DNA of 64,000 nucleotides from Candidatus Poribacteria bacterium (GTDB lineage: Bacteria; Poribacteria; WGA-4E; PCPOR2b), in contig OZ242326.1 in NCBI GenBank assembly GCA_965208325.1, forward strand, positions 2,912,001-2,976,000, given 5' to 3'. A program made the position numbers and the translations under genes. This document shows, one piece after another, positions 14,611 through 59,801 of the stretch (its first letter is position 1; each line of letters starts with the position of its first letter). Below the pieces are notes generated by a model. That model had not been told where the DNA came from, made no database searches, and was given only the letters and a program-made list of their open reading frames with translations.

Positions 14611-14620
14611 TTGAAATTCC

Positions 14621-16180: not shown

Positions 16181-16476
16181 CTTCGCCTCTGAAAAGGTGA
16201 GTTAATTTTTACGGGCAAACTAACCTAGACACAATCTTAGCAATGCTTCCGAAGCAGTGATAGCGGTAAGTCCTCACAAAGAGCAAACAAACCCATGGCA
16301 TGTGCCAGGGTTTTCAGTGCTTGGGTTTCCTCAATTTCGTCCGGTCGGCGGAGCACTATTCCCAGGCAGATATTGCTCTATGAATCTTAGCGCTGATAGC
16401 AATTTTGTTTTCTTGATTCAATGTTGTAGGAACCGCTTATTGTAGTGTCGTCCCTAGAAATTCCGTCCGTGTGGCA

Positions 16477-16669
16477 TCATGCTTTCTCATACTCCTTGAG
16501 AAAACCAACAAATTCTCCGCGATGCTTTTCCTCATCAGCGCGCAGTTTGACACAGAGGTCTTGTGTGACGTAGTCAATGCCGTCGCACAAGCGGATAACC
16601 TTATTGTAATGTTCAATCGCCCCGTTCTCCGCGTCAATCACACCGTGGATAGCTGTGACAACATCGGTC
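16477..16669 (-). pseudogene. C-terminal fragment of a ferritin/Dps-like di-iron protein
   Basis: unannotated frame TDVVTAIHGVIDAENGAIEHYNKVIRLCDGIDYVTQDLCVKLRADEEKHRGEFVGFLKEYEKA*, preceded by an in-frame TAG. Confidence 0.7.
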
Positions 16670-16874
16670 TAATCTTCAGTCTGTCGCGCATTCTGATGCA
16701 AGATAATTATACCATCAGGCGTGATTGCGGGTGGAAAGCACGGAAGCGTCAGATTTTGCATCTGCACGGTAACATGACGGTTACTAAACCGGCCGGGAAA
16801 GAACAAGGATAGGAATGAAAACGGAAGAATTACCATGAAACATCGATAATAGCGAGCCTACCCAGTTGCTGCAT

Positions 16875-17166
16875 GTTAGGTAGAGCGATCAAGCGACCGA
16901 AAAGGGAGCACGATAGTTCTTACCTTCAGTAAAAATTACCATGACCGTGCGAAACCCAACCTACAAGAACTGCATACGTGATTGCACGATGAGGCGTTGT
17001 AATCTGACGATTCGTCACGAATGCGGGGCACGCGGAATACTATCGCCTTCGCTATTCACTCAGTTGATCCCCGCCTACAATGGGGGTAGCGTCTGACTCC
17101 TCCTTGCCAAGGGGGAGGATTTTACTAGACAAAACTATCGTCCTCCCTATTCGGTCGCTTGATCCC
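16875..17166. repeat. REP-like and ACTATCG..GATCCC repeats
   Basis: GGTAGAGCG..GCGAAACCCAACCTAC; ACTATCG..TATTC..TTGATCCC twice. Confidence 0.65.
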
Positions 17167-18276: not shown

Positions 18277-18320
18277 GGTCTTCTCCTGCTGAAGAGCGCG
18301 CCTCAAAGGCGCATCCCCAT

Positions 18321-21300
18321 TTATCGAATAATCGCAAACCGGCTAATTCTATTACCGACGACAGCGTCGCTCTCATCGCGCGCTTCAACATGATAGATAT
18401 AGACGCCGCTGGCAAGGGCTTGATTGTAAAGGTTTAGCAGCTCAAACGTCTCCGTGCCGCCCTTATCGCCCTGCGCCAACCGATCATCCGGACTGAAGGC
18501 TGCGGTATGTTCGTGTTCAATCTCTCGCACTAACTCGCCCGCCATCGTATAAATCCGAATCGTACATCGCGGCGGGAGATGCGTGAAGAAGATTTTATCC
18601 GTCCCTTCGGCAGTCACTGCCCGGTTGGTGACGAAATAGGGGTTCGGCACAACGCGAATTCGTCCTAGATCGGCTTCGATGTTTTCCGCGGTAAGCGTCT
18701 CTTCGCCCGTCTTCAGAAGCACTACGTCACCGTCCTGCGGGGCGCTGACGCCGCCCATCTCAACCATAAACACATCGCCTGCGGAGATTTCACCGTTGGG
18801 ATCTTTGATGTACACGTAACCGCCCCGAATGTAAATTCGAAAATGATCCGGTGTAGCTTCCCGACTATAGGTATCGACCCAAATGGGACCTGCTTGAATT
18901 GCATACCCATCGGCGCGCTCCCCGTTGAAAGCAATCTCTTCGCCCGTATTCTCATCCATCACTTTGACGTGTGTATCGTCGACAAACCTAATCGAGTAGG
19001 TATGCGGACGGTAATATGTCGCCCACCAAACGTTGGTCCACGTGTTCTCTCCCACGCCGGGCGACTGAATGTCCACCGTCCAACCCGAAACAGAGCCTTC
19101 ACTCAACTCAACGTTGATAATCGAGTTTTCGGTGGGACTCCCGTACGTTACATCAACGCCCTTTATCTTTAGGATAACGCCGTCAAACATCGGGGAAAGC
19201 ACCTCCACAGCCTCGCCGTGAGGGGGGTCATACCACTCAAACGATTGCCGTTCCACCACCGTCTGGTTTGTCGCCGCGTCAATAATCTCATAACTGGGCG
19301 GCTGGTACCCGGGACCTGTAATATACGCGCCGGCATCGGTCTGTTTGGCGCCCTGCCAGACGATTCTATATTCGTGTCCCGTCACCCTGTTCGGCGCAAG
19401 TACCATCGGTTCTACCGTGACTGTCCCCGTGAGAGCCGAAGGCGTATCCACCACATCGGCAGTGGCGCCTCGATACCCGGCCGGTTGCGCACGCGGCACC
19501 ACATGAACCATCGTCTCAATCTGGCTGCTTTCCATCGCGATAAGCCCGGTTTTCGGGTTGCCCGTATCATAAGAGGTAACCGCATAGGTGTACTCAAGGC
19601 CGTTGGTCAACCCTTCGTCGGTGTAGAAATTCTTGATGCCCGCATCCTCACCAAGCGACATCGAAGGCGTAGAAACAACCCGGAAGATATCGCCCGCCAC
19701 TGGAGGACCTGAAGGTCCATCCGAAATTGATACATACAAACCGCCAAAGTAGATTTGCGCACCGGAACGGTAGGTTCCATCAGGATACGGTTCACCCGTA
19801 GCCGAGTCTTTCACCACAACATAACCCTCACCGTTCGCGGGGAATTCCGGATTATGCGCCATTACCTCCCAGAGCGTCGTATTAATTACCTCAAAGGACG
19901 TGCTAGAGTTAAATTTGATGGCGTAAACCGCACTTTTGAAAAAGTCGGAAAAAAACGGCTCATCGCCCTCGTTAGTAATGGTAGCGTCCGACTGCTTGCC
20001 GACATGCGCCACTGTGAAGAAGTTGCCGGTTGCGCTCGGTTTATCAAATTCCATTAGCATCGTCCAATCTTCCACAGGGTTGCCGGACGATGAATCGTAA
20101 GAGGTATCTCTCCGGTACACCCGATAACCCTCAAACACCTTCTCCGAATCGGTCACATCAACATATTCTTCGATACTTTTATTCACACCTTGGTCCACCC
20201 AGCGTCCATCGCTTTCCCAAATGAGTGTCACCTGTCCGTCAGCAGGGAGTGCAGTGACCAGCGGGGACGGCGGCGGCGCCGGTGCAACATACGCATCATC
20301 GTACAACTTCTGCGCCCAGTCCGAAGATGCCTGCAGCCCTTCAAGCCCCTCGCCGATTGCCACTGCCGCGATGACCGTGAATTCCTGACCGGGAGCGAAC
20401 GCCGCGATGGGGCCGTACGATTGGATAAAGCGCTGGTCGTCGTAATTCGCGGGAAGCGGTTCAACGCCGGGGATGCTGATTAAAGCGTACTTTTCCGCGT
20501 CAGTTGTTGGATCGGTGGATATCGTAATCCGTTTGTGCGCCGTAAAAGGAATCTTCGCCCCGGCATCCTGCGCGTTGTCCCCAAAATACGCATCTAATAC
20601 CCGCAAACCGATGTACCCGACCGCAGACGCATTGGAGAAGCCGTAAGAGAGAAAACGGTTCGGATGGGCTTCAGGGTTGAGCGCATCCGGCGTCTCATCC
20701 AGCGCAACAAAGTCGTCAGCCGAGTAGCTCGCCGTGCCCGTTTCGTTGCTAGAGATATCAACGTCGTACCGGAACGCCATGAATAGGTCTTCGAGCGTCT
20801 CGTTCCCAACATTTTTGACGTTATATTCCAGAATAAAAAAGTCGTAGAGCGGCGCATAACTCCACTGAAAGCCGTTGACGTCAAGCTCCAACCCGAGAAT
20901 TAATCCCTTATTCGCCTCAGCGTTCATGTCCGTGCATCTGAACCGAATCGCTTGGCTCGCCGGTGTCCCTTGCGTAGTTACACCGGGCTTATCAGAAATC
21001 ACCTCGGGTACATCATCAGTCGGCCAAATCTCACTCTGCCTGCCATCCGATTCAGAAACCCCAACTTCGCCGCCAATCTTGGCGCCGATCCAGATATTGC
21101 CCTCATAAAGGTAGGAATCGTTCGTTCCCGCAGGCCACCAACCTGACGGGTTCGCGGTCGGGTTGCTGGGGTAGCCGACGACTGCGGTGTTGTAAACAGC
21201 AGACGATAGATTGCCTACGTCAAGCGCTTTCCAATCCACGCCTGCCTTCACCGGCAGAATTGCTATGGCGAATAGCGCAGATGCCAGTAATGCAGTAGGC

Positions 21301-43600: not shown

Positions 43601-46600
43601 GTGCGCCGAAAAAAACTTTGTGCCGTGCCGCTAACGACTGACAACCCCATGGGTGCAGAGCTAGAAACGACCACCGAACTCTCCGAGAATTTCCTCTCAC
43701 TGGACCTTGAAGTCGGTGTCAAAGACCGCCGAATCCACGCCTTCGCAGCAATACGCTCAAATACGGAGCAACCGCTGACGCGCCGTCCGTCGAGCGGCGG
43801 ATTGGACGCCGCATTGGCGGAATTGGACAACTTTGCCGACGGCGTAGACTTTGTACTCGGTCACAATCTTATCCATTTCGATTTGCCCCACCTGCGAGCC
43901 GCAAACCCCAACTTGCGGTTACTGCGCCTGCCCGCTGTAGATACCCTCAGACTCAATCCCCTAGCCTTCCCCCGCAACCCCTATCATCACTTGGTTAAGC
44001 ATTACCAAGATGGACAACTCGTACGCGGACGCATCAACAACCCGGAACTAGACGCCAGACTTGCTATTGGGGTCTTCAGCGACCAGCAGATTGCGTTAAG
44101 TAATACATCGTCCGACCTGTTGACCGCTTGGCACGGGCTGACGACCGCCGTAGGTGGCGAGGGATTCGATCGGTTTTTCGCAACACTGCGGCACTCGCCA
44201 AGACCGACCGCCGCGAAAACCTCTAACGCCATCTACACACTTCTGAATAGCAAAGCGTGCCAAACGCATACCAGCGAGGCGATAGCAAATGCAGATAACC
44301 ACCCCTGGGAGTTGGCTTATGCCTTGGCGTGGATCTCGGTGTGCGGTGGCAATTCGGTCATGCCCCCTTGGGTGCGGCATCAATTTCCCGGGGCCGGACG
44401 TTTGGTGCACCAACTGCGAGACACCCCTTGCGCCGACATCAACTGCAACTGGTGCCGAGAGCGGCACAACGCCCGAAATGAGCTTAACCGATGGTTTCGC
44501 TTTGCCGATTTCCGGGAAAAGCCAGTCGATCATGACGGCAATTCCATTCAGCAGCCCATCGTTGAAGCCGCCATGGCGCACAAACATGTGCTGGGAATCT
44601 TACCGACCGGCTCCGGCAAATCGCTCTGCTACCAACTGCCCGCAATCTCGCGCTACGACAAGACGGGCGCCTTGACGGTGGTAATCTCTCCGCTGGTCGC
44701 ACTTATGGCCGATCAAGTAGCGAGCCTCGAACGTAAAGGAATCGGTTGCTGCCTCACTATCAACGGGCTGTTGTCGATGCCCGAAAGGGCGGATGCCCTG
44801 GATCGGGTGCGCTTGGGAGATGCAGGCATCGTCCTGGTTGCGCCGGAGCAACTTCGCAGCATCCCCTTCCGCCGAGCGTTAAAACAGCGCGAAATTGGCG
44901 CCTGGGTGCTTGACGAAGCCCACTGCCTCTCGAAGTGGGGCCACGACTTTCGGCCCGATTACCGGTACGTGGGTCGGTTCATCCGGGAAACCGCGGGGGA
45001 GCAGCCCGTTCCGCCTGTGTTGTGCCTGACTGCCACCGCCAAGCCCGATGTGAAGGCGGACATCATTGAATATTTTCTTGACAGACTCGACATCGAGCTG
45101 AATGTCTTTGATGGCGGCGCCCAAAGAGACAATCTGGAGTTCTTAGTCGTACGCACGAGCGGCGGTGAGAAGTTCGATCATGTCCATCAGATAATTGCAG
45201 AATATCTGCCGGCGCATGTACCGGGCGGCGCCATCGTGTATTGCGCCACGCGGCGACAGACTGAAGAGATTGCACAATTCCTGCAGGCGAATGAGACGGC
45301 AGCCGAATACTTCCATGCGGGCCTGCCGCCAGAGACCAAGAAAGACGTCCAACAGAATTTCATCAGCGGCGAGTTACGTGTCATCGCAGCTACCAACGCC
45401 TTCGGCATGGGCATTGACAAACCGGACGTGCGGCTGGTAATCCATGCCGACATTCCCGGTTCCCTAGAAAATTTTCTGCAGGAGGCGGGTCGCGCCGGGC
45501 GCGATCAGCAGACTGCACACTGCGTACTGTTATACACGCCGGAAGATGTGGAGCGCCAGTTTGGCATGTCGGCTTACTCTCGGCTCACACGGCGGGAAAT
45601 CCACGGCGTCCTAAGGGCGCTGCGTAATCTCGACCGGAGGAATCGGTTGAACGGCGAGGTGGTAGCCACCGCCGGTGAAATCCTCCTTGAGGACGAAGAC
45701 AAAGTCTTCCAACGGGATTCGGCGACCGACGACACCCGGGTACGCACCGCGGTGGCATGGCTGGAAGAAGCTGACCTGCTGCAGCGGGATGCAAATTACG
45801 TAAGGGTGTTTCCGTCGTCGCTGCGCGTGAATTCAACGAAAGATGCTCGTAACAAGCTGGAAACCGCTCGAATCAGAGATGACTATCGTCGCCAACTGTT
45901 AATCATTGTCGATAGGCTGATTGACGCGGGCCGGGACCAAGGTATCTCCACGGACGAACTGATGGCGGCTTCCGGTCTGACGCCGGAGGGCGTACGAGCC
46001 GCGCTCTACGACTTAGAGCAGTTGGGCATCGCAAACAACGACACGGTTTTGACGGCTTTCGTTCACGCAGGAGTCGAACATTCATCACAAAATCGCTACG
46101 ACAAGGCAGCGGCGCTTGAGTGTGCCCTAATCGATTTTTTGCGTGAGGACGCCCCCGATATGGATAAAGGAGAGAGCGCCATGCTGCATCTACGCGTCGC
46201 CGCCCAACGGCTAAAAGATGCCGGACATACCTATGCCCTGCCGGAACGCCTGTGGCGAAACCTCCGAAGCATCGCCGCTGACGGTCGCGGTGAAGGAAGC
46301 GGCGGCGGAAGTCTCGCCGTTCGAAAGCTTAATCCAGAGATTGTGCGAGTGACCATGCTGCGTGGGTGGAAAGCGTTGACTGAGACCGCTCGGTTGCGCC
46401 GCCAAGCCGCGGTGCGCCTGCTCGAACATCTTCTTTCCAGCCTGCCGTCCGGCAGCCGAGGCACAGACCTGCTCGCCGAGACGACCTTGGGGCAACTGCT
46501 GGGGGCGATTAAGTCAGACCTTATTCTGGCGAACCGCGTGAAGCACCACGGAAAACTCATGGACCGCGCCCTGCTGTGGCTTCACGAGCAGGAGGTAATC

Positions 46601-48763
46601 CAACTAAATAAAGGGCTAGCGGTGCTACGACCGGCGATGACCATCCGCCTTCAGCCGGAACGCCGCGGTTTTGCTCGATCGGATTTTCAACCCCTCAACC
46701 TTCACTACCTTGAAAAAACGCTGCAAATCCACGTAATAGCGGAATTTGCAGAGCGAGGACTTGAGGCAATTGTTGATAGTCTGCGTATGGCGATGGACTA
46801 TTTTGTGCTTACACGAAATGACTTTCTGCGCCGCTGGCTGCCGGACCGAGATATTTCGCGCCAGACTACACCGGAATCTTGGCGAACCATCGTCGAAAGC
46901 CTGAGAAATCCCATTCAACGCCGCATCGTGGCGGACGACCGGGAGCAGACGAACGTCCTGGTGCTCGCCGGTCCCGGCTCCGGCAAGACGCGGGTGCTCG
47001 TGCATCGTATCGCCTATCTGATACGCGTGAGACGCGAGAACCCCCGCGGCATCTTGGCGCTCGCTTACAACCGGCACGCCGCCGTCGAAATCCGTCGGCG
47101 CTTAGCAGAACTCATCGGTGTCGACGCCCGCGGGGTGTTGGTGTTCACCTGCCATGCACTCGCTATGCGGCTGGTCGGCGCCAGTTTCGAGGGACGCGCA
47201 AATCGCATGGATGACGAGGAATTCCGAGAAATACTCCGCGGTGCCGCGGCACTGCTGCACGGCGAAGGGCTGCCGCCGGACGAAGCCGACGAATACCGCG
47301 CGCGCCTGCTGGCAGGGTTCCGCTGGATTTTGGTAGATGAGTACCAGGACATCGGCGAAGATCAGTACGAACTAATTTCCGCACTGGCGGGCAGAACCCT
47401 TTCCGACGAAGATGACAAATTAAGCCTTTTCGCAGTGGGCGATGACGATCAGAACATCTACGCCTTCAACGGCTCCTCAGTCGAGTTTATTCGCCGCTTT
47501 GAGGAGGACTACCGCGCCCAACCCACCTTCCTGACCGGCAACTACCGTTCCACAGCCCGCATTATCGCAGCTTCCAATGCGTTAATCGAGCCGGCGCAGC
47601 AACGCATGAAGACCGAGCACCCAATCAAGGTCAACAGAGCGAGGAGGGATGAACCGCACGGCGGCGCATGGTCTACGCTTGACTCGGTCGCCGGCGGGAA
47701 AGTGCAGATATTGCTTGTGGGCGATAATCCTATCACCCAAGCGCAGGCCGTTGTCGTCGAACTGAAGCGATTGTCCGATTTAGATCCTGACTGGGATTGG
47801 TCGAAATGCGCCGTCATCGCGCGCAAATGGCGTTACCTAGACCCGGTGCGCAGCCTCTGCGAACTCGAGAAGATTCCGGTTCAGATGGCGAACGAAGACA
47901 ACTTGAAAGTTTGGCATCTACGGGAGACCCGCAGGCTAGTGGACTGGCTGCGCTCGCGGAAGTTTCGCTCGGTATCAGGGGAAGACCTGAACAACTGGAT
48001 GGACAACCAGCCCGCAAATCCTTGGTCCGAGCTGCTCCGCGACGGCATAACAGAGTACACGCTGGAAACCAGCGGAGCGGAAACACCGGCAAATCACTTC
48101 GTCGAGTGGCTGGCTGAATGGGCTCGCGAGGTACGCCGCCGCCAGCGGGGGCTGCTGCTGTTGACCGCCCACCGCGCCAAAGGCTTGGAATTCGACCATG
48201 TGGTCGTATTAGACGGAGGCTGGGATCGCGTTGATAGCAGCGAGGATGTGGATGCCCCGCGGCGGCTGTATTACGTCGCAATGACCCGCGCACGCCACAC
48301 CCTTGCGCTGGCGCGCTTTCCGGGTGAACACCGGCTGCAAGACGCCTTGCGGGGTAATCCTTCGGTGCTGCGCCGACGCGGAGACGGCAATCTCCCGCCC
48401 CCGCCGCCGGAACTTGAACGCCGCTACAGCCGGCTCAGCTTGAGCGACATCTTTCTGAGTTTCGCGGGGTATAAGCGCCCCGATGATCCCGTGTATCGGA
48501 ATATCGCCTCGCTCTCTCCCGGCGATCCGTTGCATGTGCGCGTCGGGTCGAAGCGATGGGAACTTCTCGATCGCAACGGGAATGTCGTCGGGCAGCTTGC
48601 CTCCGGATTCAACGGGTCTGGCAACGTGCGCTGCACACGCGCCAAAGTCTGGGCAATCGTCGCCTGGAACCGCGAGTATTCGGAACCCCAGTACCAACGC
48701 GGCATTCAACGCGATAGCTGGGAGGTCGTGGTGCCGGAGTTGATTTTCGAGCCGGATTCATAA
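43601..48763 (+). CDS. fusion of a DEDD-exonuclease-like domain, RecQ helicase and UvrD-like helicase
   Basis: LDLE/GHNLIHFD N-terminus; LPTGSGKS, DEAH, QEAGRAGRD; AGPGSGKT, DEYQD, HRAKGLEFD, YVAMTRAR; start may be ATG 43649; promoter TTGACA-17-TAGTAT at 43544-43572. Confidence 0.9.
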   Translation: MRRKKLCAVPLTTDNPMGAELETTTELSENFLSLDLEVGVKDRRIHAFAAIRSNTEQPLTRRPSSGGLDAALAELDNFADGVDFVLGHNLIHFDLPHLRAANPNLRLLRLPAVDTLRLNPLAFPRNPYHHLVKHYQDGQLVRGRINNPELDARLAIGVFSDQQIALSNTSSDLLTAWHGLTTAVGGEGFDRFFATLRHSPRPTAAKTSNAIYTLLNSKACQTHTSEAIANADNHPWELAYALAWISVCGGNSVMPPWVRHQFPGAGRLVHQLRDTPCADINCNWCRERHNARNELNRWFRFADFREKPVDHDGNSIQQPIVEAAMAHKHVLGILPTGSGKSLCYQLPAISRYDKTGALTVVISPLVALMADQVASLERKGIGCCLTINGLLSMPERADALDRVRLGDAGIVLVAPEQLRSIPFRRALKQREIGAWVLDEAHCLSKWGHDFRPDYRYVGRFIRETAGEQPVPPVLCLTATAKPDVKADIIEYFLDRLDIELNVFDGGAQRDNLEFLVVRTSGGEKFDHVHQIIAEYLPAHVPGGAIVYCATRRQTEEIAQFLQANETAAEYFHAGLPPETKKDVQQNFISGELRVIAATNAFGMGIDKPDVRLVIHADIPGSLENFLQEAGRAGRDQQTAHCVLLYTPEDVERQFGMSAYSRLTRREIHGVLRALRNLDRRNRLNGEVVATAGEILLEDEDKVFQRDSATDDTRVRTAVAWLEEADLLQRDANYVRVFPSSLRVNSTKDARNKLETARIRDDYRRQLLIIVDRLIDAGRDQGISTDELMAASGLTPEGVRAALYDLEQLGIANNDTVLTAFVHAGVEHSSQNRYDKAAALECALIDFLREDAPDMDKGESAMLHLRVAAQRLKDAGHTYALPERLWRNLRSIAADGRGEGSGGGSLAVRKLNPEIVRVTMLRGWKALTETARLRRQAAVRLLEHLLSSLPSGSRGTDLLAETTLGQLLGAIKSDLILANRVKHHGKLMDRALLWLHEQEVIQLNKGLAVLRPAMTIRLQPERRGFARSDFQPLNLHYLEKTLQIHVIAEFAERGLEAIVDSLRMAMDYFVLTRNDFLRRWLPDRDISRQTTPESWRTIVESLRNPIQRRIVADDREQTNVLVLAGPGSGKTRVLVHRIAYLIRVRRENPRGILALAYNRHAAVEIRRRLAELIGVDARGVLVFTCHALAMRLVGASFEGRANRMDDEEFREILRGAAALLHGEGLPPDEADEYRARLLAGFRWILVDEYQDIGEDQYELISALAGRTLSDEDDKLSLFAVGDDDQNIYAFNGSSVEFIRRFEEDYRAQPTFLTGNYRSTARIIAASNALIEPAQQRMKTEHPIKVNRARRDEPHGGAWSTLDSVAGGKVQILLVGDNPITQAQAVVVELKRLSDLDPDWDWSKCAVIARKWRYLDPVRSLCELEKIPVQMANEDNLKVWHLRETRRLVDWLRSRKFRSVSGEDLNNWMDNQPANPWSELLRDGITEYTLETSGAETPANHFVEWLAEWAREVRRRQRGLLLLTAHRAKGLEFDHVVVLDGGWDRVDSSEDVDAPRRLYYVAMTRARHTLALARFPGEHRLQDALRGNPSVLRRRGDGNLPPPPPELERRYSRLSLSDIFLSFAGYKRPDDPVYRNIASLSPGDPLHVRVGSKRWELLDRNGNVVGQLASGFNGSGNVRCTRAKVWAIVAWNREYSEPQYQRGIQRDSWEVVVPELIFEPDS

Positions 48764-48849: not shown

Positions 48850-49590
48850 ATGAATTCTTACAAATTCACAGATTATACATACTTGGAAATTAAGGGCTTC
48901 ATTGAGGAAGGGTACTTGGCAATCTTACCGACAGGATGCACAGAACAGCAGGGCCCGCACCTGCCGGTGGGTTTCGACACATGGTTCGCTGAGACCGTTG
49001 CTTTAGCGGCTGTGCAGCACAATCGCGGCCGTGCCCTAGTGTTGCCGGCAATGCCATTTGGCCCAACGCCGGAACATCAGGGCTTCGGTTCAGGCTATGT
49101 CAACATCCCGCACCCGGTCCACGAAGAGTTCATCTATTTCGTCCTTGAATCGCTCGCACAACAAGGCTTCAGTACCATCGTTGTCTGGCGAGGCTGCGGA
49201 GAGCATCGGTTACAGAGAACAGTAAACAACTTCAACGCGAAATTTCAGGATCGATGCACCGCATGTGTTCCAGCCCTTCCGTACCGTGACATTTGGCTGC
49301 GTGTAGCTGATCCAACTGTTCCGTGCGGTCACGCCGACAGCTTTGCGACTTCGATCGCTCTATACAAATGCCCGGAGATTGTTCGCGTCGACAAAATCCC
49401 TCCACCCAACGCCGGTCAAGTGGACTGGAACGATCCGCATCTCGATTTTTCGAAATACTCAGAAACCGGTGTCATCGGCGACGCTACCAAAGCGAGCGCC
49501 GAATTAGGCAGTAGGCTTTGGAACGAGGTCGTAACGACATCAGCAACAATAATCAGAAATGCTGCCGTAAATTGTGCACCGAATGGATAA
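48850..49590 (+). CDS. creatininase-family amidohydrolase
   Basis: LPTGCTEQQGPHLPVGFD, GHAD, GVIGDATKASAELG. Confidence 0.85.
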   Translation: MNSYKFTDYTYLEIKGFIEEGYLAILPTGCTEQQGPHLPVGFDTWFAETVALAAVQHNRGRALVLPAMPFGPTPEHQGFGSGYVNIPHPVHEEFIYFVLESLAQQGFSTIVVWRGCGEHRLQRTVNNFNAKFQDRCTACVPALPYRDIWLRVADPTVPCGHADSFATSIALYKCPEIVRVDKIPPPNAGQVDWNDPHLDFSKYSETGVIGDATKASAELGSRLWNEVVTTSATIIRNAAVNCAPNG

Positions 49591-49943: not shown

Positions 49944-50816
49944 ATGCCAAAAATCCCGGTTCTGATTCTCTTTTTGATTTCCGTGTCGTTATGCTCAGCG
50001 GAATTAAGCGAGCCGCTATCGGTTGAAAGGTTGCTTGCCATAACCGAAAAAGAACTGGAAACGGAACTGCCAAAGTTTGATATTGCCTACATCAACATGG
50101 TCTGTGCACAGGGGTTGCCCGGTGCGGAAGCATTTGATGTTCCAAAGGCTTTAGCAAAACTCGATGAATGGGCGAAACATATTCAACATGAAACCCAACG
50201 CCACGAATATCTGTTTCATCGAGATAAGGACTATTACAACGGCTCACTTGCATACTACCAGATTGAGATGATGGTGTCGGTCTTATCACAGGATATGGGG
50301 GTCAGGTATAATCCCGAACTGATTGAGTCCGGCGCATTGTACGACCTTGAATCAACACGGTTCTATGCCGATTCAAGAGATGTGTTCCTTCATGGGTTGC
50401 TATCCCCGCGTCCGTGGGGAACTTGCGCCTCAATGCCTGTCTTGGTCGTTGCTATCGGTAGACGCTTGGGCTATCCGTTAAAACTAGTGCGCGCCAAAGC
50501 CCATCTTTTTGTGCGGTGGGAGTCGGAAACAGAGCGTTTCAACATTGAGGCGACAGGGCGAGGATGGAATCCTTATCCGGATTCGCATTATCGCCGGTGG
50601 CCGCATCCATTCACCAAAGCGGAAGAATACGCCAACCGCTTTTTGAAATCGCTATCGCCGGCAGAAGCACTGGCGGATTTTCTGGGTCAACGCGCCTACT
50701 GTCTCAAGGAACATAAAAGAGATGCCGAAGCCAAAAAAGCGCATGTCAAAACTATCTGGATCTATCAATTGTTCAACGAACGGAGCGGGCGAATAAAACG
50801 CCCGAACATGCTATGA
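49944..50816 (+). CDS. exported transglutaminase/papain-like (SirB1-related) protein
   Basis: signal peptide; putative triad GTCASMP, AHLFVRW, FNIEAT. Confidence 0.75.
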   Translation: MPKIPVLILFLISVSLCSAELSEPLSVERLLAITEKELETELPKFDIAYINMVCAQGLPGAEAFDVPKALAKLDEWAKHIQHETQRHEYLFHRDKDYYNGSLAYYQIEMMVSVLSQDMGVRYNPELIESGALYDLESTRFYADSRDVFLHGLLSPRPWGTCASMPVLVVAIGRRLGYPLKLVRAKAHLFVRWESETERFNIEATGRGWNPYPDSHYRRWPHPFTKAEEYANRFLKSLSPAEALADFLGQRAYCLKEHKRDAEAKKAHVKTIWIYQLFNERSGRIKRPNML

Positions 50817-51643
50817 CTATGAACACAGTTAAACGATTTACCCTACTGATACTACCGCTGACCTTTATCGCTTCACCCGTTTTAGAAGCCTATTATGACC
50901 CGCACATCGGACGCTTTACACAGCGAGACCCCGCGGGAGAAGGGGTCAACTGGTATGCCTATGGCGCGAACAATCCGATGAAGTTTGTTGACCCAACGGG
51001 GATGTATATCGTCCTGCCGGGCGGCACCGAAATAAGAAGCGTCCCTGACATAGTTGGTGGTAACTATGTAAGGCCGGAGGGTCTGTCAGACGAAGCCAGT
51101 ATACTTTGGGATTCAATATTCACAGGCGGAAACAACGGAACCGGAATCGCTGGAAGTAACAGCGCGGGCGGTATTGTGACCGATATTATCGAAAGCCCCA
51201 CGCCAGTGACAATAAATTTTTCAGAAAAAGTACAAGGAAATGCGGAAGCCGTTGCCATATTGAATCCTAATAACGGTTCTATTACAGTAAACATCAATAA
51301 GGAAAGGGTCAAACCGCCGAACCCAGAAATTTTGGGACAGATGGCTAGGCTGACAATGGCTCTGGTTCATGAATTTTCTCATGTCCATGACTATATGAAC
51401 ATACCACTAGACTTCATATATGGCCAGCCATACCATTTTAGTTATGTTACGGAAATGAAGGCTTTTGGTCTTGAAGCCCGGTACGCAATAGAAACGGATA
51501 GAAAAGACGGAAATTATAAGTTCGGCTGGCATAGCATGTATTCTGGCTTTAGTGCACATGAACTCACGCACTATGGTTCCACGGACTATTACGGGAAACT
51601 TAATAGACTGGCACTTAAGGCAATGGGGTTGAATTATCGATAA
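50813..51643 (+). CDS. signal peptide + minimal RHS-core motif + HExxH metallopeptidase domain
   Basis: YYDPHIGRFTQRDP..NWYAYGANNPMKFVDPTG; ALVHEFSHVHDY..TEMKA. Confidence 0.8.
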   Translation: MTMNTVKRFTLLILPLTFIASPVLEAYYDPHIGRFTQRDPAGEGVNWYAYGANNPMKFVDPTGMYIVLPGGTEIRSVPDIVGGNYVRPEGLSDEASILWDSIFTGGNNGTGIAGSNSAGGIVTDIIESPTPVTINFSEKVQGNAEAVAILNPNNGSITVNINKERVKPPNPEILGQMARLTMALVHEFSHVHDYMNIPLDFIYGQPYHFSYVTEMKAFGLEARYAIETDRKDGNYKFGWHSMYSGFSAHELTHYGSTDYYGKLNRLALKAMGLNYR

Positions 51644-51660
51644 TCGGCAGGAGAAAAACA

Positions 51661-52782
51661 ATGCGGCTTGTCCTTATCTGTCTATATTTGGTTAGCATGG
51701 CAAATATTGTATCTTACGCTCATGATCAGAACATCGCGTCGTTAATTCAGCAACTTGAACATACAGATGCGGATGTCCGAGACAGCGCGGGTAAATCCCT
51801 CATCGAAATTGGCGAAACAGCAGTGCCGGCATTGATTGTGGGATTAAACCACGAAAAAGTCATTGTGCGCCGGGCGGTTGTGGATATACTGTACAATATT
51901 AGAGCGAGTGTCCCTCACAATAAAGACATAGACCGTGCTTTGGCTAAAGCCCTACAAGATATAGAGGTGCGTTATCAAATAATACAATGCTTCACTCCGA
52001 CCGATTCGGAATTACCGCCGGAGTTTATTTCAGGCTTAGTGCAGTTACTCTATTATGGATCGCCCTACTTTGGACACGCCGATCCCTGCATGGTTTTGCT
52101 CAAGTGGACGGGCAATCAAGGACGAGTTGCTTTAATCGAGGCGTTGCACAGTAGCGAATGGCCGCTTCGTTTTGGTGCTGCCATCACCTATGGGCATCTG
52201 TTTGGCTTCTTCACTGGCTTTAATAACCCTGATGCTGCGCCTCTTCCTAATGAAGCAATCTCTCCTAAAGAGGTAATCTCTATAATAGCTGGAGGATTAA
52301 CCCATCCGGATTGGAAGACACGAGATGAAGCGATGAGGGTCTTGAGTATCATTAGCAAGTCCGACCCTGCTCGCTTTGGCGAAACGGCAAAAGCGTTTGA
52401 TGAAGCCAGACAGGCACTTAAAGCATTGCCGGCCTTCGCTATCATATCCCAAACTATCACAGATGGGTGTTACCTTGATGACACAAATTTCGATGCTTTC
52501 GATTCATTGAATACCGAGGGCATTACGTTCAAATTCAACCGCTCAATTCACGGGAGCGGGACGCTTACAATCAAAACCGTTGATGGTGAACCGCTAGGTT
52601 GGAACGTCGAAAAGGGCAGCCATTCAGTGACCATAACCCCGCCAGAAGGGAAAGAACTGGTAAAAGGTCAACGCTATACGATTCAACTCAGGGATGTTAA
52701 GGACATTCTGGGTAATCAAGTCGATGCCGAAATCGAGTTCTCAACTGAAGTGCTGATTCGTAGTTCCAGGCACGCCCATTAA
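51661..52782 (+). CDS. exported HEAT-repeat + Ig-like (SbsA/Big_5-type) protein, candidate immunity or partner
   Basis: signal peptide, HEAT motifs IGETAVPALI, C-terminal ITFKFNRSI..VTITPP..YTIQL..DILGN. Confidence 0.75.
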   Translation: MRLVLICLYLVSMANIVSYAHDQNIASLIQQLEHTDADVRDSAGKSLIEIGETAVPALIVGLNHEKVIVRRAVVDILYNIRASVPHNKDIDRALAKALQDIEVRYQIIQCFTPTDSELPPEFISGLVQLLYYGSPYFGHADPCMVLLKWTGNQGRVALIEALHSSEWPLRFGAAITYGHLFGFFTGFNNPDAAPLPNEAISPKEVISIIAGGLTHPDWKTRDEAMRVLSIISKSDPARFGETAKAFDEARQALKALPAFAIISQTITDGCYLDDTNFDAFDSLNTEGITFKFNRSIHGSGTLTIKTVDGEPLGWNVEKGSHSVTITPPEGKELVKGQRYTIQLRDVKDILGNQVDAEIEFSTEVLIRSSRHAH

Positions 52783-52806
52783 AGCCCCTAACTCGAAGGA
52801 AAAGCA

Positions 52807-53916
52807 ATGAACAAGCCCACGCGAGTTTGCCTTACTTGTCTATATTTGGCGAGCATGGCAAGCATAGTATCTCATGCTCACAATGAGAACATCGCATCGT
52901 TGATTCAGCAATTTGAACATGCGGATGTGGATGTCCGAGACAGCGCAAGTAAAGCCCTCACCGAAATAGGTGAAGCAGCAGTGCCGGCATTGATTGCGGC
53001 ATTAGACCACGAAAATACCGGGGTGCAGGCGTAGGCTTTGAATACACTGCATGATATGAGAGATCAGTTTCATCAGCTTCTCGACAAGGACACGAGCACC
53101 CCGTATTATAAACACATCGTCCGTGGGTTGGTTAAAGCCCTAAAAGCTGAAGATTCGGATTTGCGTTATGCGGCGATAGTTGGCTTCATAGGTTACACAG
53201 GGCGCGAAGTACTCACACCGGAAGAAATTTCGGGTTTTATCCGGTTATTCTATTATGGATCTCCCATCTTTTCCCCAGATGCCTCCCATATTTTGCTCCC
53301 GCGTATGGGACTTCACGGGCGTTCTGCCTTAATCGAGGCGTTGCACAGTAGCAATTGGGCGCTTAGTTTCGGTACCGCTATCGCTTATGGATATGGTTTT
53401 GCATATACTTACAATAGGCCGGAGCTGAAAGTGGGGCATCTCCCGCCAGCGGTGGTTCCTAGATTAGCTGAAGGATTATCCCATCCAGATTGGAGGGCGC
53501 GAGAAGGAGCGGCTAAGGTCTTGAAACGCCTCGAATCGTGTCGCATTGGCGAAGCGGGAAAAGCGCTTGAAGCATTGCCGCCCTTCGGTATCATATCCCA
53601 AACCATCAAAGATAGGCAGCGATTTAGGGATCCCGATGCTCTCGATTCATTGAATGCCGATGGCATTACTTTCAAATTCAACCGTTCAATTTATTACGAT
53701 GGCGAGATTACAATCAGTTCCCATGATGGTGAACAGCTAGGTTGGAATGTTGAAAGGAGCAGTCATTCAGTGACCATAACCCCTCCGGAAGGCAAAGTAC
53801 TGGTGGAAGGTCGGCGCTATACGATTCAACTCAGGGATGTTCGGGACATTGTGGGCAATCAAATCGATGCCGAAATCGAGTTCTCCACAGAAGTGCCGCT
53901 CAGACGCGCCCCTTAA
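52807..53916 (+). pseudogene. paralog of the HEAT+Ig protein interrupted by an in-frame TAG (53032-53034)
   Basis: ORFs 52807-53034 and 53038-53916 are in the same frame and together align with 51661-52782. Confidence 0.8.
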
Positions 53917-53956
53917 AGCCTCTAACTCGGATAGACAACATGTGAAACTTCACATC

Positions 53957-54745
53957 ATGCTGTTGAAAAGTTTAATGCTCTTTTGTGGGTTTTGTTTGTT
54001 CATTAGCTGCTCAACGAATGAAGGGACACAACCAATGACGATAAAAACGATAATTGATGCTTGGGTGGCATCAGACCCGTCTTACACTTGGAGTCCGCCA
54101 GCAACTGAAGCCGAAATTCGCGCTGCGGAAGAACAAATCGGCTCGCCCCTTCCGCCCCCGCTGCGTGAACTCTATCAATTCTCTAATGGTGGTGACATTA
54201 TGGACGTAGTGTTTTTATTTCAGCTTTTACCCAACAACATTTCTTCTTTAGGACTAAGCAATTCCACTGCAATGTTCAATGAGTTGGGTTGGCATAATCC
54301 TCAAGAAATTCTGTTGTTTGCTACCAATGGGCTTTCGGAGGCGTATGGTATCTGGTTGCCAGAAACTGACAGTGAGGTTTTCAAACAACCGATTATCGAA
54401 GTTGCCCCTACCGACGAAGGGTGCATGGCTGTTGTTGGAACAAACTTGACATCTTTTTTGCTTGGCAGAACTGCCTACCACTTAGTGTTTGAGATTGACA
54501 ATTTCGATGGTAGCAAGAAACCAGACGCATCCAAGAAATTAAAGCAACTACAGATAGCTCTGGATATTTTACAAGTGCCACAAACATTTCGGCATGTTGA
54601 ATTTTTCGACGATTCTGACCATCACTTTTCGCAAATTATAAAGTGGGCAGATCCATCACTACCCAATCCGTGTGCCAGTTCTTATATCCAGGAGTATACC
54701 GTCACAGACCTAAAAAAACTGTTTGGCGATTCGAGAGATGACTAA
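53957..54745 (+). CDS. SMI1/KNR4 (SUKH) family lipoprotein, candidate immunity protein
   Basis: lipobox FISC; PPATEAEIRAAEEQIGSPLPPPLRELYQFSNGG. Confidence 0.85.
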   Translation: MLLKSLMLFCGFCLFISCSTNEGTQPMTIKTIIDAWVASDPSYTWSPPATEAEIRAAEEQIGSPLPPPLRELYQFSNGGDIMDVVFLFQLLPNNISSLGLSNSTAMFNELGWHNPQEILLFATNGLSEAYGIWLPETDSEVFKQPIIEVAPTDEGCMAVVGTNLTSFLLGRTAYHLVFEIDNFDGSKKPDASKKLKQLQIALDILQVPQTFRHVEFFDDSDHHFSQIIKWADPSLPNPCASSYIQEYTVTDLKKLFGDSRDD

Positions 54746-54767
54746 TCCATCAATCTAGGGAGACAAA

Positions 54768-56219
54768 ATGAAACACAAAAGGAGCATTCTTCTTTTTATT
54801 TTTGTGTTAGCTAGTTTGGCTTGGAACGCTCCAGCATCGATTGGACAAGAGATAGAATCGCTTATCAATCAGCTTGACAACGAAGATGAAGATGATTCGG
54901 TTCGTCACAATGCGTCTAAACGCTTGGCTCAAAATGGCGCCCCAGCCGTGCCGGAATTGGTGAGCGTATTGCCGGAAGCAGATCTGGAACTCGCTTTAAG
55001 CATCGTTGAGACTTTGACGCTTATGGGCAGCGATGCCGAGTCCGCTGTATCAGCATTGATAGAGGCATTAAGGAAGCCGAATTTTTCTGTCTACAGACGA
55101 AAAATGTTTGTGGATTTTCACGATAGCTGCGTTGAAGCTCTTGTTGAAATTGGCACTCCCGCTGTCCCGGCGCTAAAAGACGTTTTAAGCGATGCCAATG
55201 CAGAATTGCGTTATCATGCGGCACGGACGCTAAGTAACATGGGTTATAAAGCTAACCCCGCCGCCATTGCGTTAGTACCCCTGCTGAACGATGAATATGA
55301 TAAAGTGCGCATAGCAGCTGCTTCAGCATTAGGTGGCATGAGGTCGCAACCTGTCCCAGATATTGTTATCAATATTAAGAAACAGGCGCTTGAGAGGAGC
55401 ATACAGACAGATGATGCGATGCTTGATAGAGCGGCAGAAGCCGCGATTCCCGATTTGATGAAGATGATAGGGGATGAGAGTAATTCGATTCGCGCCGCCG
55501 CAGTGCGTGCATTAGGCACGTTGGGCGGAGCTGCCGCCGTCCCAGCGTTGACAGTGGCGCTGAAAGACAGGGACGATAACGTCCGCACGATAGCTGCAAT
55601 AACGCTGGGCGAGATTGGCTTTCCCGCCAATGCAGCTGTGCCCACACTGATAAACAAATTGAAGAAGGGCCTATACGAAACAGAAGGGATTCGAGTGTCG
55701 GTTGTGCAAGGATTGGGCGGAATTGGCACTCCTGCTGCTGTGTCCGGGTTGATAGAAGCCTTAAACGATCCATCTGGCTTTGTTCGTAGAATGTCTATAA
55801 CCGAATTAGCCAGAATTGGCGAGCCTGTTGACGACATCATTTTACTACTCATGAAAACGTTAGCCGATACGGATGCTGATGTCCGTGTTGAGGGTTCTCA
55901 AGCGTTAGGCAGAATTGGTGTTCCCGCCGTTCCTGCCTTGACTGAGGGATTGAGCCACGAAACACTAGAGGTTCGGATTTGGTCTGCCTACGCCTTGTCA
56001 CAGATAGAGGGGGACATTCAAGTTGCCGAGCCCGTCTTAATACAGGCATTACGAGATAAAGACAAGGATGTTCGTCGCTATGCGGCTTATGCATTGAAAA
56101 AGATTGGAACGCCTGAAGCGATTAAGGCTGCCATTCCTGTATTGGAGAAAGACGACGAACCTATCATGTCAACGCACGTAAAAAAGCAACTGAAGCATCG
56201 AAAGCCGTCGGGGTTTTGA
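54768..56219 (+). CDS. exported HEAT/PBS-lyase repeat protein
   Basis: signal peptide; many VR..AA.ALG.IG..AVPAL repeats. Confidence 0.88.
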   Translation: MKHKRSILLFIFVLASLAWNAPASIGQEIESLINQLDNEDEDDSVRHNASKRLAQNGAPAVPELVSVLPEADLELALSIVETLTLMGSDAESAVSALIEALRKPNFSVYRRKMFVDFHDSCVEALVEIGTPAVPALKDVLSDANAELRYHAARTLSNMGYKANPAAIALVPLLNDEYDKVRIAAASALGGMRSQPVPDIVINIKKQALERSIQTDDAMLDRAAEAAIPDLMKMIGDESNSIRAAAVRALGTLGGAAAVPALTVALKDRDDNVRTIAAITLGEIGFPANAAVPTLINKLKKGLYETEGIRVSVVQGLGGIGTPAAVSGLIEALNDPSGFVRRMSITELARIGEPVDDIILLLMKTLADTDADVRVEGSQALGRIGVPAVPALTEGLSHETLEVRIWSAYALSQIEGDIQVAEPVLIQALRDKDKDVRRYAAYALKKIGTPEAIKAAIPVLEKDDEPIMSTHVKKQLKHRKPSGF

Positions 56220-56225
56220 AAAACA

Positions 56226-56366
56226 ATGATAAAGCACAAGCGATTTGTCCTTATCTGTCTATATTCGGTGAGCATAGTACCTCACGCTCACAATGTGAAA
56301 ACCATCTGGATTCATCAACAATTCGACGAAAGGAGCGGGCGAATAAAACGCCCGAATACGCAATGA
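56226..56366 (+). pseudogene. 46-aa chimeric junction ORF (HEAT-Ig signal peptide fused to the transglutaminase C-terminus)
   Basis: MIKHKRFVLICLYSVSIVPHAH + NVKTIWIHQQFDERSGRIKRPNTQ, versus HVKTIWIYQLFNERSGRIKRPNML in 49944-50816. Confidence 0.7.
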
Positions 56367-57219
56367 CTATGAACACAGTTAAACGATTTACCCTTCTGAT
56401 AATACTGTTGATCTTTATCGCTTCACCGGCTATAGAAGCCTATTACGACCCACACGTCGGACGCTTTACGCAGAGAGACCCCGCCGGAGACGGGGTGAAC
56501 CACTATGCGTATGGCGCGAATAACCCGATGAAGTTTGTTGACCCGACAGGGATGTATATCGTCCTGCCGGGCGGCACCGAAATAAGAAGCGTCCCTGATC
56601 AAATTGATGGTAGCTATGTAATGCCCGGCGGTTTGTCAAGCGACAGCCAGGCGGTTTGGGATTCATTATTCACAGGGGGGAAGGGCACAGGAATCGCTGG
56701 CAGTAACACCGCACGCGATATGCTGGCCACTATTATTAACAGCCCGATACGAGTGGAGATAAAGTTTGATCGGTCGTTACCGAAGGCGACTCTAGGCACG
56801 GCAGAAAATGTGGGCGAACTCATTCTGGTAGACATCAATACGGATCTCAGGTCGTCGAATCCAAAGCGGACAATGACTCTACTTCATGAACTGTCTCATG
56901 CCCATGACTATATGACAATGCCGTCAGACTACGGAAATGGTAATCCCTACCATGCTAGTATGTTTCGGAGTTGAGGGCTTATGGTCTTGGAGCCAAGTAC
57001 GCAAGAGAGATGGATAGAAAAAATGGAAATTATAATCCCGACGGCTTGTTTAGCAGATATACCGGCTTTAATCCACACCGCCACCTTACAGACCCTGGCC
57101 CCGTACCACCTACGTCCGCGGGCTATACGGGCTATCGTTTAAGTGGCAGTGCCGGCTATAATTCCATGGGCTATTACAGGCAACTTCACTCTTTAGCAAT
57201 GGGGTCAATGACATATTAA
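56363..57219 (+). pseudogene. second signal peptide-RHS core-HExxH gene with a 1-bp frameshift near 56959
   Basis: near-identical leader and core; LLHELSHAHDY; restoring one T gives SYVSELRAYGL, matching SYVTEMKAFGL. Confidence 0.8.
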
Positions 57220-57247
57220 CTTGGCACTAATCTACAGAGGGCAAAAC

Positions 57248-58530
57248 ATGAACAAGCATAAACTGGGAGGGATTATCTGTCTATATTTGGTGAGCATGGC
57301 AAGCATAGTATCTCACGCTCATCTTCAAGATAAGGAAATCGCATCGCTAATTCAGCAATTTGACCATCCGGAGGCGCGTGTTCAATACAGCGCGGCGTGG
57401 AATGCGGCGCTCGATGCACAGCGATCACTCGTCGAAATTGGCGAACCCGCAGTGCCGGCTTTGATTATGGCATTAGACCACAAAAGCCCCGATGTGCGCC
57501 AGAATACTGCGGAGGTGCTAATCGATATGCTGGCTCAAAATAACGGTGCTATCAATGACTTGTCAGAGTTAAAGCCTTTAGTCCCGAATTTTAATGATAC
57601 TCCAATTACAACTTCGGCCCGCATCGAACACTTTACCCGCCTCAACGAAGTCATTACACATGCACTGATTAAACGCTTAAAAGATGATGATGCTCAGGTG
57701 CGTTCTAGGGTAGTGGATTATTTCTTGAGATCTTCCGAGATTTCCTCGAAAGCATTAGCCCCGGAAGTTGTTTCGGGCTTAACCCTGTCACTCTATTATG
57801 GATCGCCCTTCTTTAGTAGATCCGATGCCCTCAAAATTCGGCGCAAAATAACGGGTGCGGCACGGATAACCCATGCGTTGACGTTGCAAAACAATGATGT
57901 GTTGCACAGTAGCGAATGGCCGCTTCGTTTCGGTTCCGCCATCGCTTATGGATATGCGATTGGTAGTCGTGCGGTGTTCATAGAGGACGTGCCCCATCCC
58001 TCTAAAACTATAAAAGCAATAACTTCTACGTTAATTGAAGGATTAACCCATCCAGATTGGCAGACACAAGAAGACGCGATTGATGTCTTGGATTGTCTCA
58101 GATATTACTATTATCATCTCTTTGATGATAGAGCGAAACAAGCGCTTGAAGCATTACCTCCTTTCGGTATCATATTCCAAACCATCAGAGATAAAGATGA
58201 CGTTCCCCATCTTCTCGATTCATTGAATACCGACGGCATAACTTTCAAATTCAACCGTTCAATTCATAGGATGGGGACGATTACAATCAAACAAGTTAGT
58301 GTTCGTGGTAGACCGGTTGAGCCTGGTTTGGAATTGGGTTGGAATATTGAAAAGAGCAGCCATTCAGTGACCATAACCCCCCCGAAGGGAAAGAACTGGT
58401 GAATGTTAGCCGCTATACGATTCAACTTAGGGGTTTTGAGGATGTTCTGGGGTATCATCAACTCGCCGCCGAAATCGAGTTTTCAGTAGAAGTGCCGCTC
58501 AACCTCCGACACCTACACCAAAGCCCCTAA
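57248..58530 (+). pseudogene. third HEAT+Ig paralog, frameshifted in a C7 run (~58377-58383)
   Basis: continuation frame ELVNVSRYTIQLRGFEDVLG..AEIEFSVEVP matches the paralog C-termini. Confidence 0.75.
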
Positions 58531-59122: not shown

Positions 59123-59310
59123 TTATTCCAAGATTTTCATGTTCCCATGTCTATCTTGTGTGAAAACTATCCCGCCGTGGTCATGGATACCGACCTTCGC
59201 CCGCGAATTGATGTCCTTGCCTTGCGCAACGACAAAACCGCCGTCGTCATTGACATCGAGCCTCGACATTGATAGGCCGTCATTGCCATAGGCATCAACC
59301 GTCCCGCCGT
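59123..59310 (-). pseudogene. C-terminal fragment of a paralog of 59827-60225
   Basis: unannotated frame DGGTVDAYGNDGLSMSRLDVNDDGGFVVAQGKDINSRAKVGIHDHGGIVFTQDRHGNMKILE*. Confidence 0.55.
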
Positions 59311-59801
59311 CTGCATATCAACGACAGTGGCGCCGGCACGGGCTAACGATACCGCCGAACCGACACGTAGCGAATGCCCACTGATAAATCCCTCAACGCC
59401 GGCTTCACTGGCCCAACGCTTAATGGCGTTCCTAGCCACCTCAGCCGATAGCCGCCCCTTGCCGATATGCTGATGGTATCGAACACGGCGAAACAAAGCC
59501 CCCGATTCGATTCCCGCTCTCTTACAGTAACGCTTAATCACCCGGCACGTCGATTCGCCGATGTAAAGCGTAGCACCCTCACCTTCTTGATCGGTCTTAC
59601 TCTTCCTGACTTCCAAAACGCCGTCGTGGATGTCCTCTACATTGACCGCGACAGCTTCAGAGACCCGGAGCAGACAATCACTCATGAGATTGATTATGGC
59701 TGAATCACGCAGACCCGCTAACGTTCTACTGGCTTCGGCAAACGAACATACCCGTTCAACTTCCTGCCATGTAAGCCCTTCAACTTGACCGCGACCGCCT
59801 T
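59297..59801 (-). pseudogene. Cre-like tyrosine recombinase fragment
   Basis: GRGQVEGLTWQEVERVC..GLRDSAII..LLRVSE, SKTDQEG, SGHSLRVG, DMQTAGR; N-terminus and the C-terminal catalytic Tyr segment are missing. Confidence 0.85.

Follow-up and report, generated by a model that had tools for sequence, protein, structure and literature searches.

Small genes that join a predicted signal peptide to an RHS core tip are linked to a transglutaminase-like gene across bacterial phyla

Toxins of the RHS/YD-repeat type, among them Rhs1, RhsP, the TcC proteins (for example, YenC2), WapA and the bacterial teneurin-like proteins, share a core motif with two Asp residues, a polymorphic C-terminal domain (CT) after a DPxG motif, adjacent immunity genes and cassette arrays. 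In the accessible text of the relevant papers, some RHS toxins are described as Sec-exported (PMC3482391, PMC13018210), R650, D663 and D686 of YenC2 are named as autoproteolysis residues (PMC8455502), a conserved RHS Arg is called essential, its mutation lowering autoproteolysis (PMC13018210), and the RHS plug is described as lying buried in the barrel, with a length of about 95 residues (PMC8636562). Here we analyze a locus of eight genes, all on the + strand, at positions 49944 to about 58530 of a window of 64,000 nucleotides (G000:C1:2912001-2976000, the whole stretch of DNA under study) from the single-contig 4.7 Mb genome of a sponge-associated Poribacteria bacterium (G000). A gene for a transglutaminase-like protein (TG) stands at its head, and two copies of a small gene, which we call a mini-RHS or SP-tip, encode a signal peptide (SP), the tip of an RHS core and a CT. 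We found that SP plus tip is a conserved, dedicated architecture and that its adjacency to TG is kept across phyla; it represents a real, widespread and apparently undescribed form of RHS polymorphic toxin that comes with its own dedicated enzyme. In a search of the literature open without subscription, we found neither genes for SP plus RHS tip nor a TG partner described in the accessible text; the Additional File of PMC3482391 may list such neighborhoods.

Both minis open with a hydrophobic leader of 26 residues with an A-x-A-like end, and directly behind it lies an RHS tip of about 37 residues (YYDP..GRF..RDP..N.Y.Y..NNP..DPTG) that matches TIGR03696 at model positions 37-76 only (47 bits against a cut-off of 32.5) and has both Asp residues, as the initial annotation of this DNA had proposed. 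Leaders were called signal-peptide-like throughout by a heuristic rule on hydropathy, charge and an A-x-A end. A domain search of the 276-residue product of mini-RHS 1 (open reading frame (ORF) 50813-51643) gave no RHS_repeat match; that is, the polypeptide has no YD-repeat shell. The minis differ from RHS/YD-repeat toxins in lacking both this shell and the catalytic Arg, in their length (190-290 residues versus 1400 or more), in having their own signal peptide at a fixed residue, and in their dedicated TG gene. With orphan rhs-CT/rhsI and cdiA-CT/cdiI modules they share a short core remnant with CT and immunity gene, arrays behind full-length genes, and exchange of CTs at DPxG. Classical orphans, however, keep a variable stretch of upstream core, whereas in the minis a conserved leader joins the core at a junction that does not vary; orphans of contact-dependent inhibition (CDI) systems are described, in the accessible text, as lacking a start and a signal sequence (PMC3150448). 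Among 33 homologues of mini-RHS 1, which have widely different CTs, 26 were leader plus tip, five were ordinary cores and two were partial, in agreement with the earlier view that the gene is not a simple orphan RHS tip.

To measure the linkage, we scanned species genomes with a TG alignment, which gave 232 confirmed stretches; the best 80 of these yielded 78 loci, two of them from G002, a sister genome of G000 in the same genus. An RHS core match was present in 69/78 TG loci and an SP-tip in 61/78, and in 52/78 an SP-tip started no more than 300 nt after TG, versus 0/73 among control RHS loci. In total the TG loci held 112 SP-tips, 19 ordinary cores and 11 unclassified cores. The 73 controls, which came from a metagenome scan with a mini alignment and are shorter (445 kb versus 943 kb) and from other taxa, held 90 ordinary cores, zero SP-tips and zero TG. 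Stretches within 10 kb of a core make up about 2% of G000. We read the 26 misses by eye: seven end no more than 126 nt from TG, and five have a divergent SP-tip right after it, so that 57 of the 71 informative loci have an SP-tip right after TG, plus one in-frame fusion. In this fusion (L080:6293-7915, on one contig of a metagenome-assembled genome), TG, leader, tip and CT lie in a single open frame. TG adjacency, which the initial annotation had proposed to check in other genomes, is thus conserved.

Several further samples agreed. In 251 Verrucomicrobiota genomes, TG was rare (three genomes) and RHS cores were common (147 genomes), and both of the further TGs found there were followed by an SP-tip. 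As a reverse check, we examined 20 extra regions of TG genomes chosen by their RHS genes: six independent regions had SP-tips, five of these with TG or a remnant of it, while TG and its remnants were absent from the seven regions of Haloferula and G181 in which all cores were ordinary; several of the 20 regions gave no tip under the pattern. Canonical SirB1-like genes had no RHS tip within 1.5 kb in the three cases checked, whereas all seven TG-subfamily copies in the same five genomes had one within that distance. The linkage spans long branches of a TG tree, which was built by a quick method and used solely to view linkage. TG loci are mostly in Verrucomicrobiota and Planctomycetota (47 and 14 of the 82 rows of this tree by title), and some TG records titled Chloroflexota or Actinomycetota fall within the Verrucomicrobiota TGs, possibly through mis-binning. 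When 1.84 billion representatives were searched with a profile of the Poribacteria head alignment, close heads came first and ordinary cores next; the search did not reach the SP-tips of the Planctomycetota-Verrucomicrobiota-Chlamydiota (PVC) group, which were discovered via TG. The metagenome scan with the mini alignment returned ordinary cores alone, and an ESM Atlas search with the head gave no match at 0.9.

The junction between leader and tip is fixed. In every one of the 112 SP-tips, and likewise in the divergent ones that we inspected by eye, the tip starts 12 residues before the first Asp; our filter demanded a small residue at -1 and included inspection of the register to the first Asp, and it did not demand Ala at -3. 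The residue at -1 is Ala in 102/112 leaders and that at -3 is Ala in 90/112. Ordinary cores have Arg at -1 in 19/19 cases; the rule for that class included this Arg, and only one unclassified true core departs from it. In an alignment to YenC2, the junction Arg corresponds to R650 and the two Asp residues to D663 and D686. The minis keep the D663 and D686 equivalents, with the R650 position held by the last leader residue, so that the Arg+Asp+Asp set is incomplete; judged from these alignments, the mature mini protein resembles the C-terminal fragment that a cut after the catalytic Arg of an RHS protein would leave. The second Asp is kept in 85 of the 87 tips with a placeable site (18 more were not placed), and an Arg stands at +12, just before the first Asp, in 110/112 SP-tips and 17/19 ordinary cores. 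The tip evolves under purifying selection, with dN/dS of 0.08-0.39 for the 13 of 15 pairs that could be computed, while constraint on the leader is weaker (0.33-1.66, on few sites). Tips were closer to cores of their own locus than to the average of other loci in 14/14 cases (10.4 versus 8.6 of 15 residues). In many PVC SP-tips (L058, L064, L070, L109, L131 and others), an insertion of 10-50 residues separates the first Asp motif from N.Y.Y, and a second RDP-like motif often accompanies it. In two proteins of about 3800 residues (P0164, P0199), the first half of the tip is matched by 16-26 stretches.

The locus had initially been described as a metallopeptidase system, which fits the zincin of the window locus and is too narrow for the class as a whole. 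The CTs are polymorphic: 104 of them fall into 91 clusters, HExxH is present in 19/112 SP-tip CTs, and CT types are common to minis and full-length RHS proteins. Pfam matches were found in 13 of the 111 proteins scanned and none in the other 98; the matches were to PLA2 (2), Ntox44 (2), Ntox16, M91, M76, AMOP (3), PT-TG, DUF922 and Cys-rich repeats. The SP-tip system is a general polymorphic-toxin format, and the metallopeptidase is the cargo of the window locus. In copy 1 this CT models confidently as a zincin, with a conserved motif (HExxH at H186-H190, plus E214), and its structural matches are many zincins at Z 6-7.5, none standing out. Kinship with the botulinum light chain was rejected, as that match (Z 7.5 or less) is tied with aminopeptidases and others and is a likeness at fold level only. 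The CTs of the two minis had no Pfam or NCBIfam match over cut-off; M91 and SprT appeared below cut-off for copy 2. HExxH domains at RHS C-termini (Tox-MPTase) and immunity types of the same kinds (Imm-SUKH, Imm-HEAT) are described in the accessible text of PMC3482391; the window differs in that its proteins are all predicted to be exported. The predicted zinc metallopeptidase of the window probably acts on other bacteria, with the exported HEAT-Ig and SUKH proteins as putative immunity factors.

The gene before mini-RHS 1, noted earlier for a Cys-His-Glu motif set, matches Transglut_core2 above cut-off (E 8e-7); across 28 aligned homologues, C161 and H187 do not vary and position 202 holds Glu or Asp. 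Its model (pLDDT 88) has a papain-like fold with Cys-His-Asp/Glu. Structural matches include menin (Z 12.6, root-mean-square deviation (rmsd) 5.0, 218 residues aligned), TglA (Z 8.7, rmsd 3.9, 164 aligned), PNGase (Z 8.3), the amine acyltransferases NAT and GdmF (Z 6-7) and LapG (Z 6.8). Because such folds either hydrolyze or transfer acyl groups to amines, the fold leaves the type of reaction undecided. Foldseek found nothing similar to the model at E 0.001 or better, and in the ESM Atlas TG matched unnamed Transglut_core2 clusters. TG belongs to a subfamily of 607 proteins (E 1e-10 or better); SirB1/YchA is likewise Transglut_core2, but of a distinct subfamily, and canonical SirB1-like genes score far higher on the Pfam model. 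Compared with its paralogue in G002, TG has a dN/dS of about 0.25, indicating purifying selection. A complex prediction of TG with a 40-residue tip gave 0.00, 0.42 and 0.01 in three runs, with the median under the mark, and was not used as evidence. TG frames of 530-675 residues in L100, L108, L111, L112, L122 and L228 have long N-terminal extensions without a Pfam match. Sortases, LapG and lasso-peptide B proteases are functional analogues, in which a dedicated cysteine enzyme cuts (and, for sortases, also re-ligates) a co-encoded exported protein; we know of no such enzyme for RHS toxins, and we take the analogy as a lead only. Catalytically dead TG domains are described at the N-terminus of long Sec-exported RHS toxins, in the accessible text of PMC3482391. 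In those proteins the TG is part of the toxin, whereas here it is a separate gene with invariant Cys and His and an acidic third residue.

The initial term "cage-less" holds for the mini gene and fails for the genome. G000 has seven RHS cores, in four full-length genes (frames of 1644-1717 residues, with signal-peptide-like starts of their own) and three short ones. One full-length gene (G000:C1:3675878-3680911) ends in the same peptidase, with 51% identity to mini-RHS 1 over tip and CT, and is followed by the same HEAT-Ig genes as the window locus; the third leader plus tip copy of G000 is found within the locus of a full-length RHS gene and is interrupted by a stop codon after DPTG. Behind the orthologous TG of G002 (98.6%) come the same leader and tip with a different CT, that is, CTs have been exchanged at DPxG between the two genomes, and a TG paralogue (77%) stands directly before a full-length RHS gene. 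In a survey of 176 genomes of the phylum, 19 had cores, three had SP-tips (three in G000, three in G002, one in G007) and two, G000 and G002, had a TG of the window type. TssC (PF05943) and PAAR (PF05488) were not found in G000, G002 and G007; VgrG was not searched. The G002 counterparts of the full-length genes have RHS repeats and a LamG insert; the Poribacteria full-length RHS genes at L034:4960-9888 and 14438-19390 encode a signal peptide and a lectin-like LamG insert near the end of the shell, the one behind TG with a two-residue insertion after the core Arg. Genes for a secretin, PilN-like and GspC-like proteins and an exported protein of 400 residues lie directly upstream of a full-length RHS gene at G000:C1:3654685-3660605 (L240), and a similar exported gene of the 400-residue type precedes the other G000 RHS locus; the set is a possible outer-membrane export route.

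As the likeliest account of these data we tentatively favor a split system of RHS polymorphic toxins: TG would open a full-length cage at the Arg, and the exported tip would be ligated to it or dock. The arrays have TG at their head, followed by small genes (SP, tip and variable toxin-like domain), each with a putative immunity gene after it. Sec export and signal peptidase would leave a free N-terminus mimicking that of an RHS protein cut after the Arg of Y-x-Y-R|Y-Y-x-P. Periplasmic TG would cut the full-length cage precursor at the Arg|aromatic bond and would either pass the cage to the free amine of the tip by transpeptidation or hydrolyze the bond so that the tip docks non-covalently. The Arg of the cage and the two Asp residues of the tip would then rebuild the autoprotease, which would free the toxin after DPxG inside the cage, and one cage gene could carry many toxins without DNA rearrangement. 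The enzymatic steps, the export, the toxicity and the immunity are all predicted. We favor the split system because it explains the fixed register, the retained Asp pair, the common pool of CTs and the presence of TG before both kinds of gene; in addition, the predicted cytoplasm-acting Ntox44 CTs (2/111) would need a carrier. The narrower proposal that TG is a dedicated ligase, trans-splicing exported tips onto cages at the catalytic Arg so that toxins are switched at the protein level and one cage fires the whole array, seems to us rather unlikely.

A number of observations weigh against the split system. No direct sign of ligation was seen. Full-length RHS genes of 1000 residues or more with a core are present in 12 of 15 TG genomes, which is weak support because RHS cores are so common in Verrucomicrobiota, and no such cage gene was found in the other three (G177, with fragments only, G180 and G189; completeness not given). 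G007, which is 99% complete, has an intact SP-tip and neither TG nor cage. The window locus is far from any full-length RHS gene, and a frame of 300 residues or more lies upstream of a core in only 10/78 TG loci. Because the Arg|Tyr bond is buried in the folded cage, TG would have to act during export. The similarity of tips to local cores, and the selection on them, could stem from DNA recombination with full-length cores, and the Arg directly ahead of the first Asp might stand in for the missing Arg. Finally, one TG-adjacent mini (L228:8086-8748) has a leader followed by Met-Arg before the tip, and so keeps the Arg. In a search that was not exhaustive, we found no RHS gene in G000 that consists of the shell alone and stops at the Arg, only one 166-residue N-terminal fragment, and noticed none in the TG loci. 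A search with PF25023 was dropped as insensitive, because it gave zero matches even in G000.

Some of these observations would sit more easily with small, cage-independent toxins matured by TG, a reading that we consider possible but unlikely. The tip would then be a recognition or spacer peptide, and TG would cleave in trans near DPxG, or acylate or cross-link the N-terminus and so anchor the toxin to the envelope or to vesicles. TG and SP-tips are operon neighbors in most loci while a full-length RHS is often absent from the locus, the three genomes without a cage would need none, and the L080 fusion joins the enzyme and its putative substrate. The fold relatives of TG include periplasmic proteases and transglutaminases (LapG, TglA), the recognized CTs include enzymes of extracytoplasmic type (PLA2, M91, M76), and the sequencing run X5 has lost TG along with the leader and tip of copy 1. 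This reading leaves unexplained why the start is fixed one residue past the catalytic Arg, why the second Asp is retained, and why TG stands directly before a full-length RHS.

The initial annotation had instead taken the tip for a self-cleaving pro-peptide. Both Asp residues are indeed kept, but the idea is weakened because the tip lacks the Arg and has under half of the protease plug (about 37 versus about 95 residues); mature-chain residues 1-37 are also unfolded in the model (pLDDT under 50). An autonomous version, with TG as an accessory and the lost Arg replaced by the new N-terminal amine or by the Arg before the first Asp, would suit the constant distance from the N-terminus to that Asp, the near-universal Arg at +12 and the G007 mini, which has neither TG nor cage. 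The Arg at +12 is not, however, a mini-specific replacement, because most ordinary cores of TG loci have it too, and the tight linkage to TG would go unexplained; we therefore regard this version as improbable. Short RHS-tip genes are usually seen as silent reserves that require DNA recombination, and the minis might similarly be orphan cassettes, donors of DNA to full-length rhs genes with the leader as a passenger. Downstream copies do bear TG 3' remnants that could act as arms of homology, and such copies are often broken, as are window copy 2 and the third genome copy, and the CT swap between G000 and G002 took place at DPxG. Against this, leaders diverge freely yet hold their charge, hydrophobic core and Ala at -3 across phyla, ordinary orphans retain upstream core sequence and have no leader, and a donor needs no dedicated enzyme. 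Silent donors are, in our estimation, the least probable of these explanations, and quite improbable.

The features of the locus are listed in Table 1.

Table 1. Features of the TG and mini-RHS locus, in window coordinates
Feature	Positions	Strand	Remarks
TG: exported transglutaminase-like enzyme (predicted), Transglut_core2/SirB1-like subfamily, 290 aa, C161-H187-E202	49944..50816	+	sole copy in genome
Mini-RHS 1 leader, 26 aa, signal-peptide-like; start overlaps TG stop (ATGA)	50813..50890	+	heuristic
Mini-RHS 1 core tip, 37 aa; begins one residue after catalytic Arg position; both Asp present	50891..51001	+	
Mini-RHS 1 polymorphic C-terminal zincin domain; HExxH 51368-51382, Glu 214	51002..51643	+	
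HEAT + Ig-like exported protein 1 (predicted), intact; probable cognate immunity protein	51661..52782	+	
HEAT + Ig-like protein 2; in-frame stop 53032-53034 in source strain	52807..53916	+	
SUKH (SMI1/KNR4) protein, lipoprotein-type leader	53957..54745	+	
483-aa exported HEAT-repeat protein (predicted); probably orphan immunity gene	54768..56219	+	
Recombination scar: HEAT-Ig 5' remnant joined to TG 3' end, upstream of second leader	56218..56362	+	repeat families D1, D8
Mini-RHS 2: same leader + tip, related zincin CT; frameshift near 56960, ORF ends 56974	56363..57219	+	
HEAT + Ig-like protein 3, frameshifted near 58380	57248..58530	+	

The window contains one intact module, the first, and one decayed module. 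The overlap of the TG stop with the first mini start is real, and all eight genes open with a hydrophobic leader. An HExxH..E peptidase had been claimed for both copies; the ORF of copy 2 ends ahead of the Glu ligand motif. This truncation recurs in P0005, and the break is real rather than an assembly error because contigs of three runs (X1, X4 and X5, the last labeled sponge metagenome and containing most of the stretch) show no indel there. No RNA run was among those listed as containing the stretch. For the stop codon of HEAT-Ig 2, X1 and X4 contigs agree with the window and X5 differs. The SUKH and HEAT assignments stand, with SMI1_KNR4 and HEAT matches over cut-off; of the three HEAT-Ig genes proposed, two are broken, and the Ig part is a weak Big_5 match (E 0.005). 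The dedicated ribosome-binding site proposed earlier was not found: neither mini has one at normal spacing, and a GGAG lies about 25-28 nt upstream with a short inverted repeat between. GGAG and repeat precede both leaders (50778-50812, 56328-56362), and folding out of the hairpin would restore a normal distance; the same DNA also codes the C-terminal tail of the preceding gene (TG, or HEAT-Ig in the third copy).

The exported neighbors behave like immunity genes of RHS loci. HEAT-Ig 1 is a probable immunity protein because its homologues follow the same CT type both in the full-length RHS locus and in G002, and SUKH homologues occur in 6/17 other Poribacteria RHS regions. The 483-residue HEAT gene is probably an orphan here, since in G002 it lies directly behind a different mini-RHS. 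Judged from the rest of the genome as well, exported immunity-like genes are the norm in RHS loci of this lineage.

These results define a recurring class, in Poribacteria, Verrucomicrobiota and Planctomycetota records, in which the minis have their own predicted export signal, cleaved at a constant residue with mechanistic meaning, and a dedicated partner enzyme is encoded alongside. They provide a first concrete functional lead for a large unannotated Transglut_core2 subfamily, expose about 90 mostly unannotated candidate toxin domains, and make RHS toxin action testable in bacteria without a type VI secretion system. If ligation does occur, it would amount to a novel form of post-translational toxin exchange; otherwise, the minis would point to an undescribed maturation pathway for minimal RHS toxins.

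Directly past the locus lies a phage-integrase fragment (59167-59685, - strand), which suggests a mobile island. On the other side are a creatininase-family gene (48850-49590) and a gene of higher GC content for a 1720-residue RecQ-like/UvrD fused helicase (43601-48763), both of which are also present beside the G002 locus.

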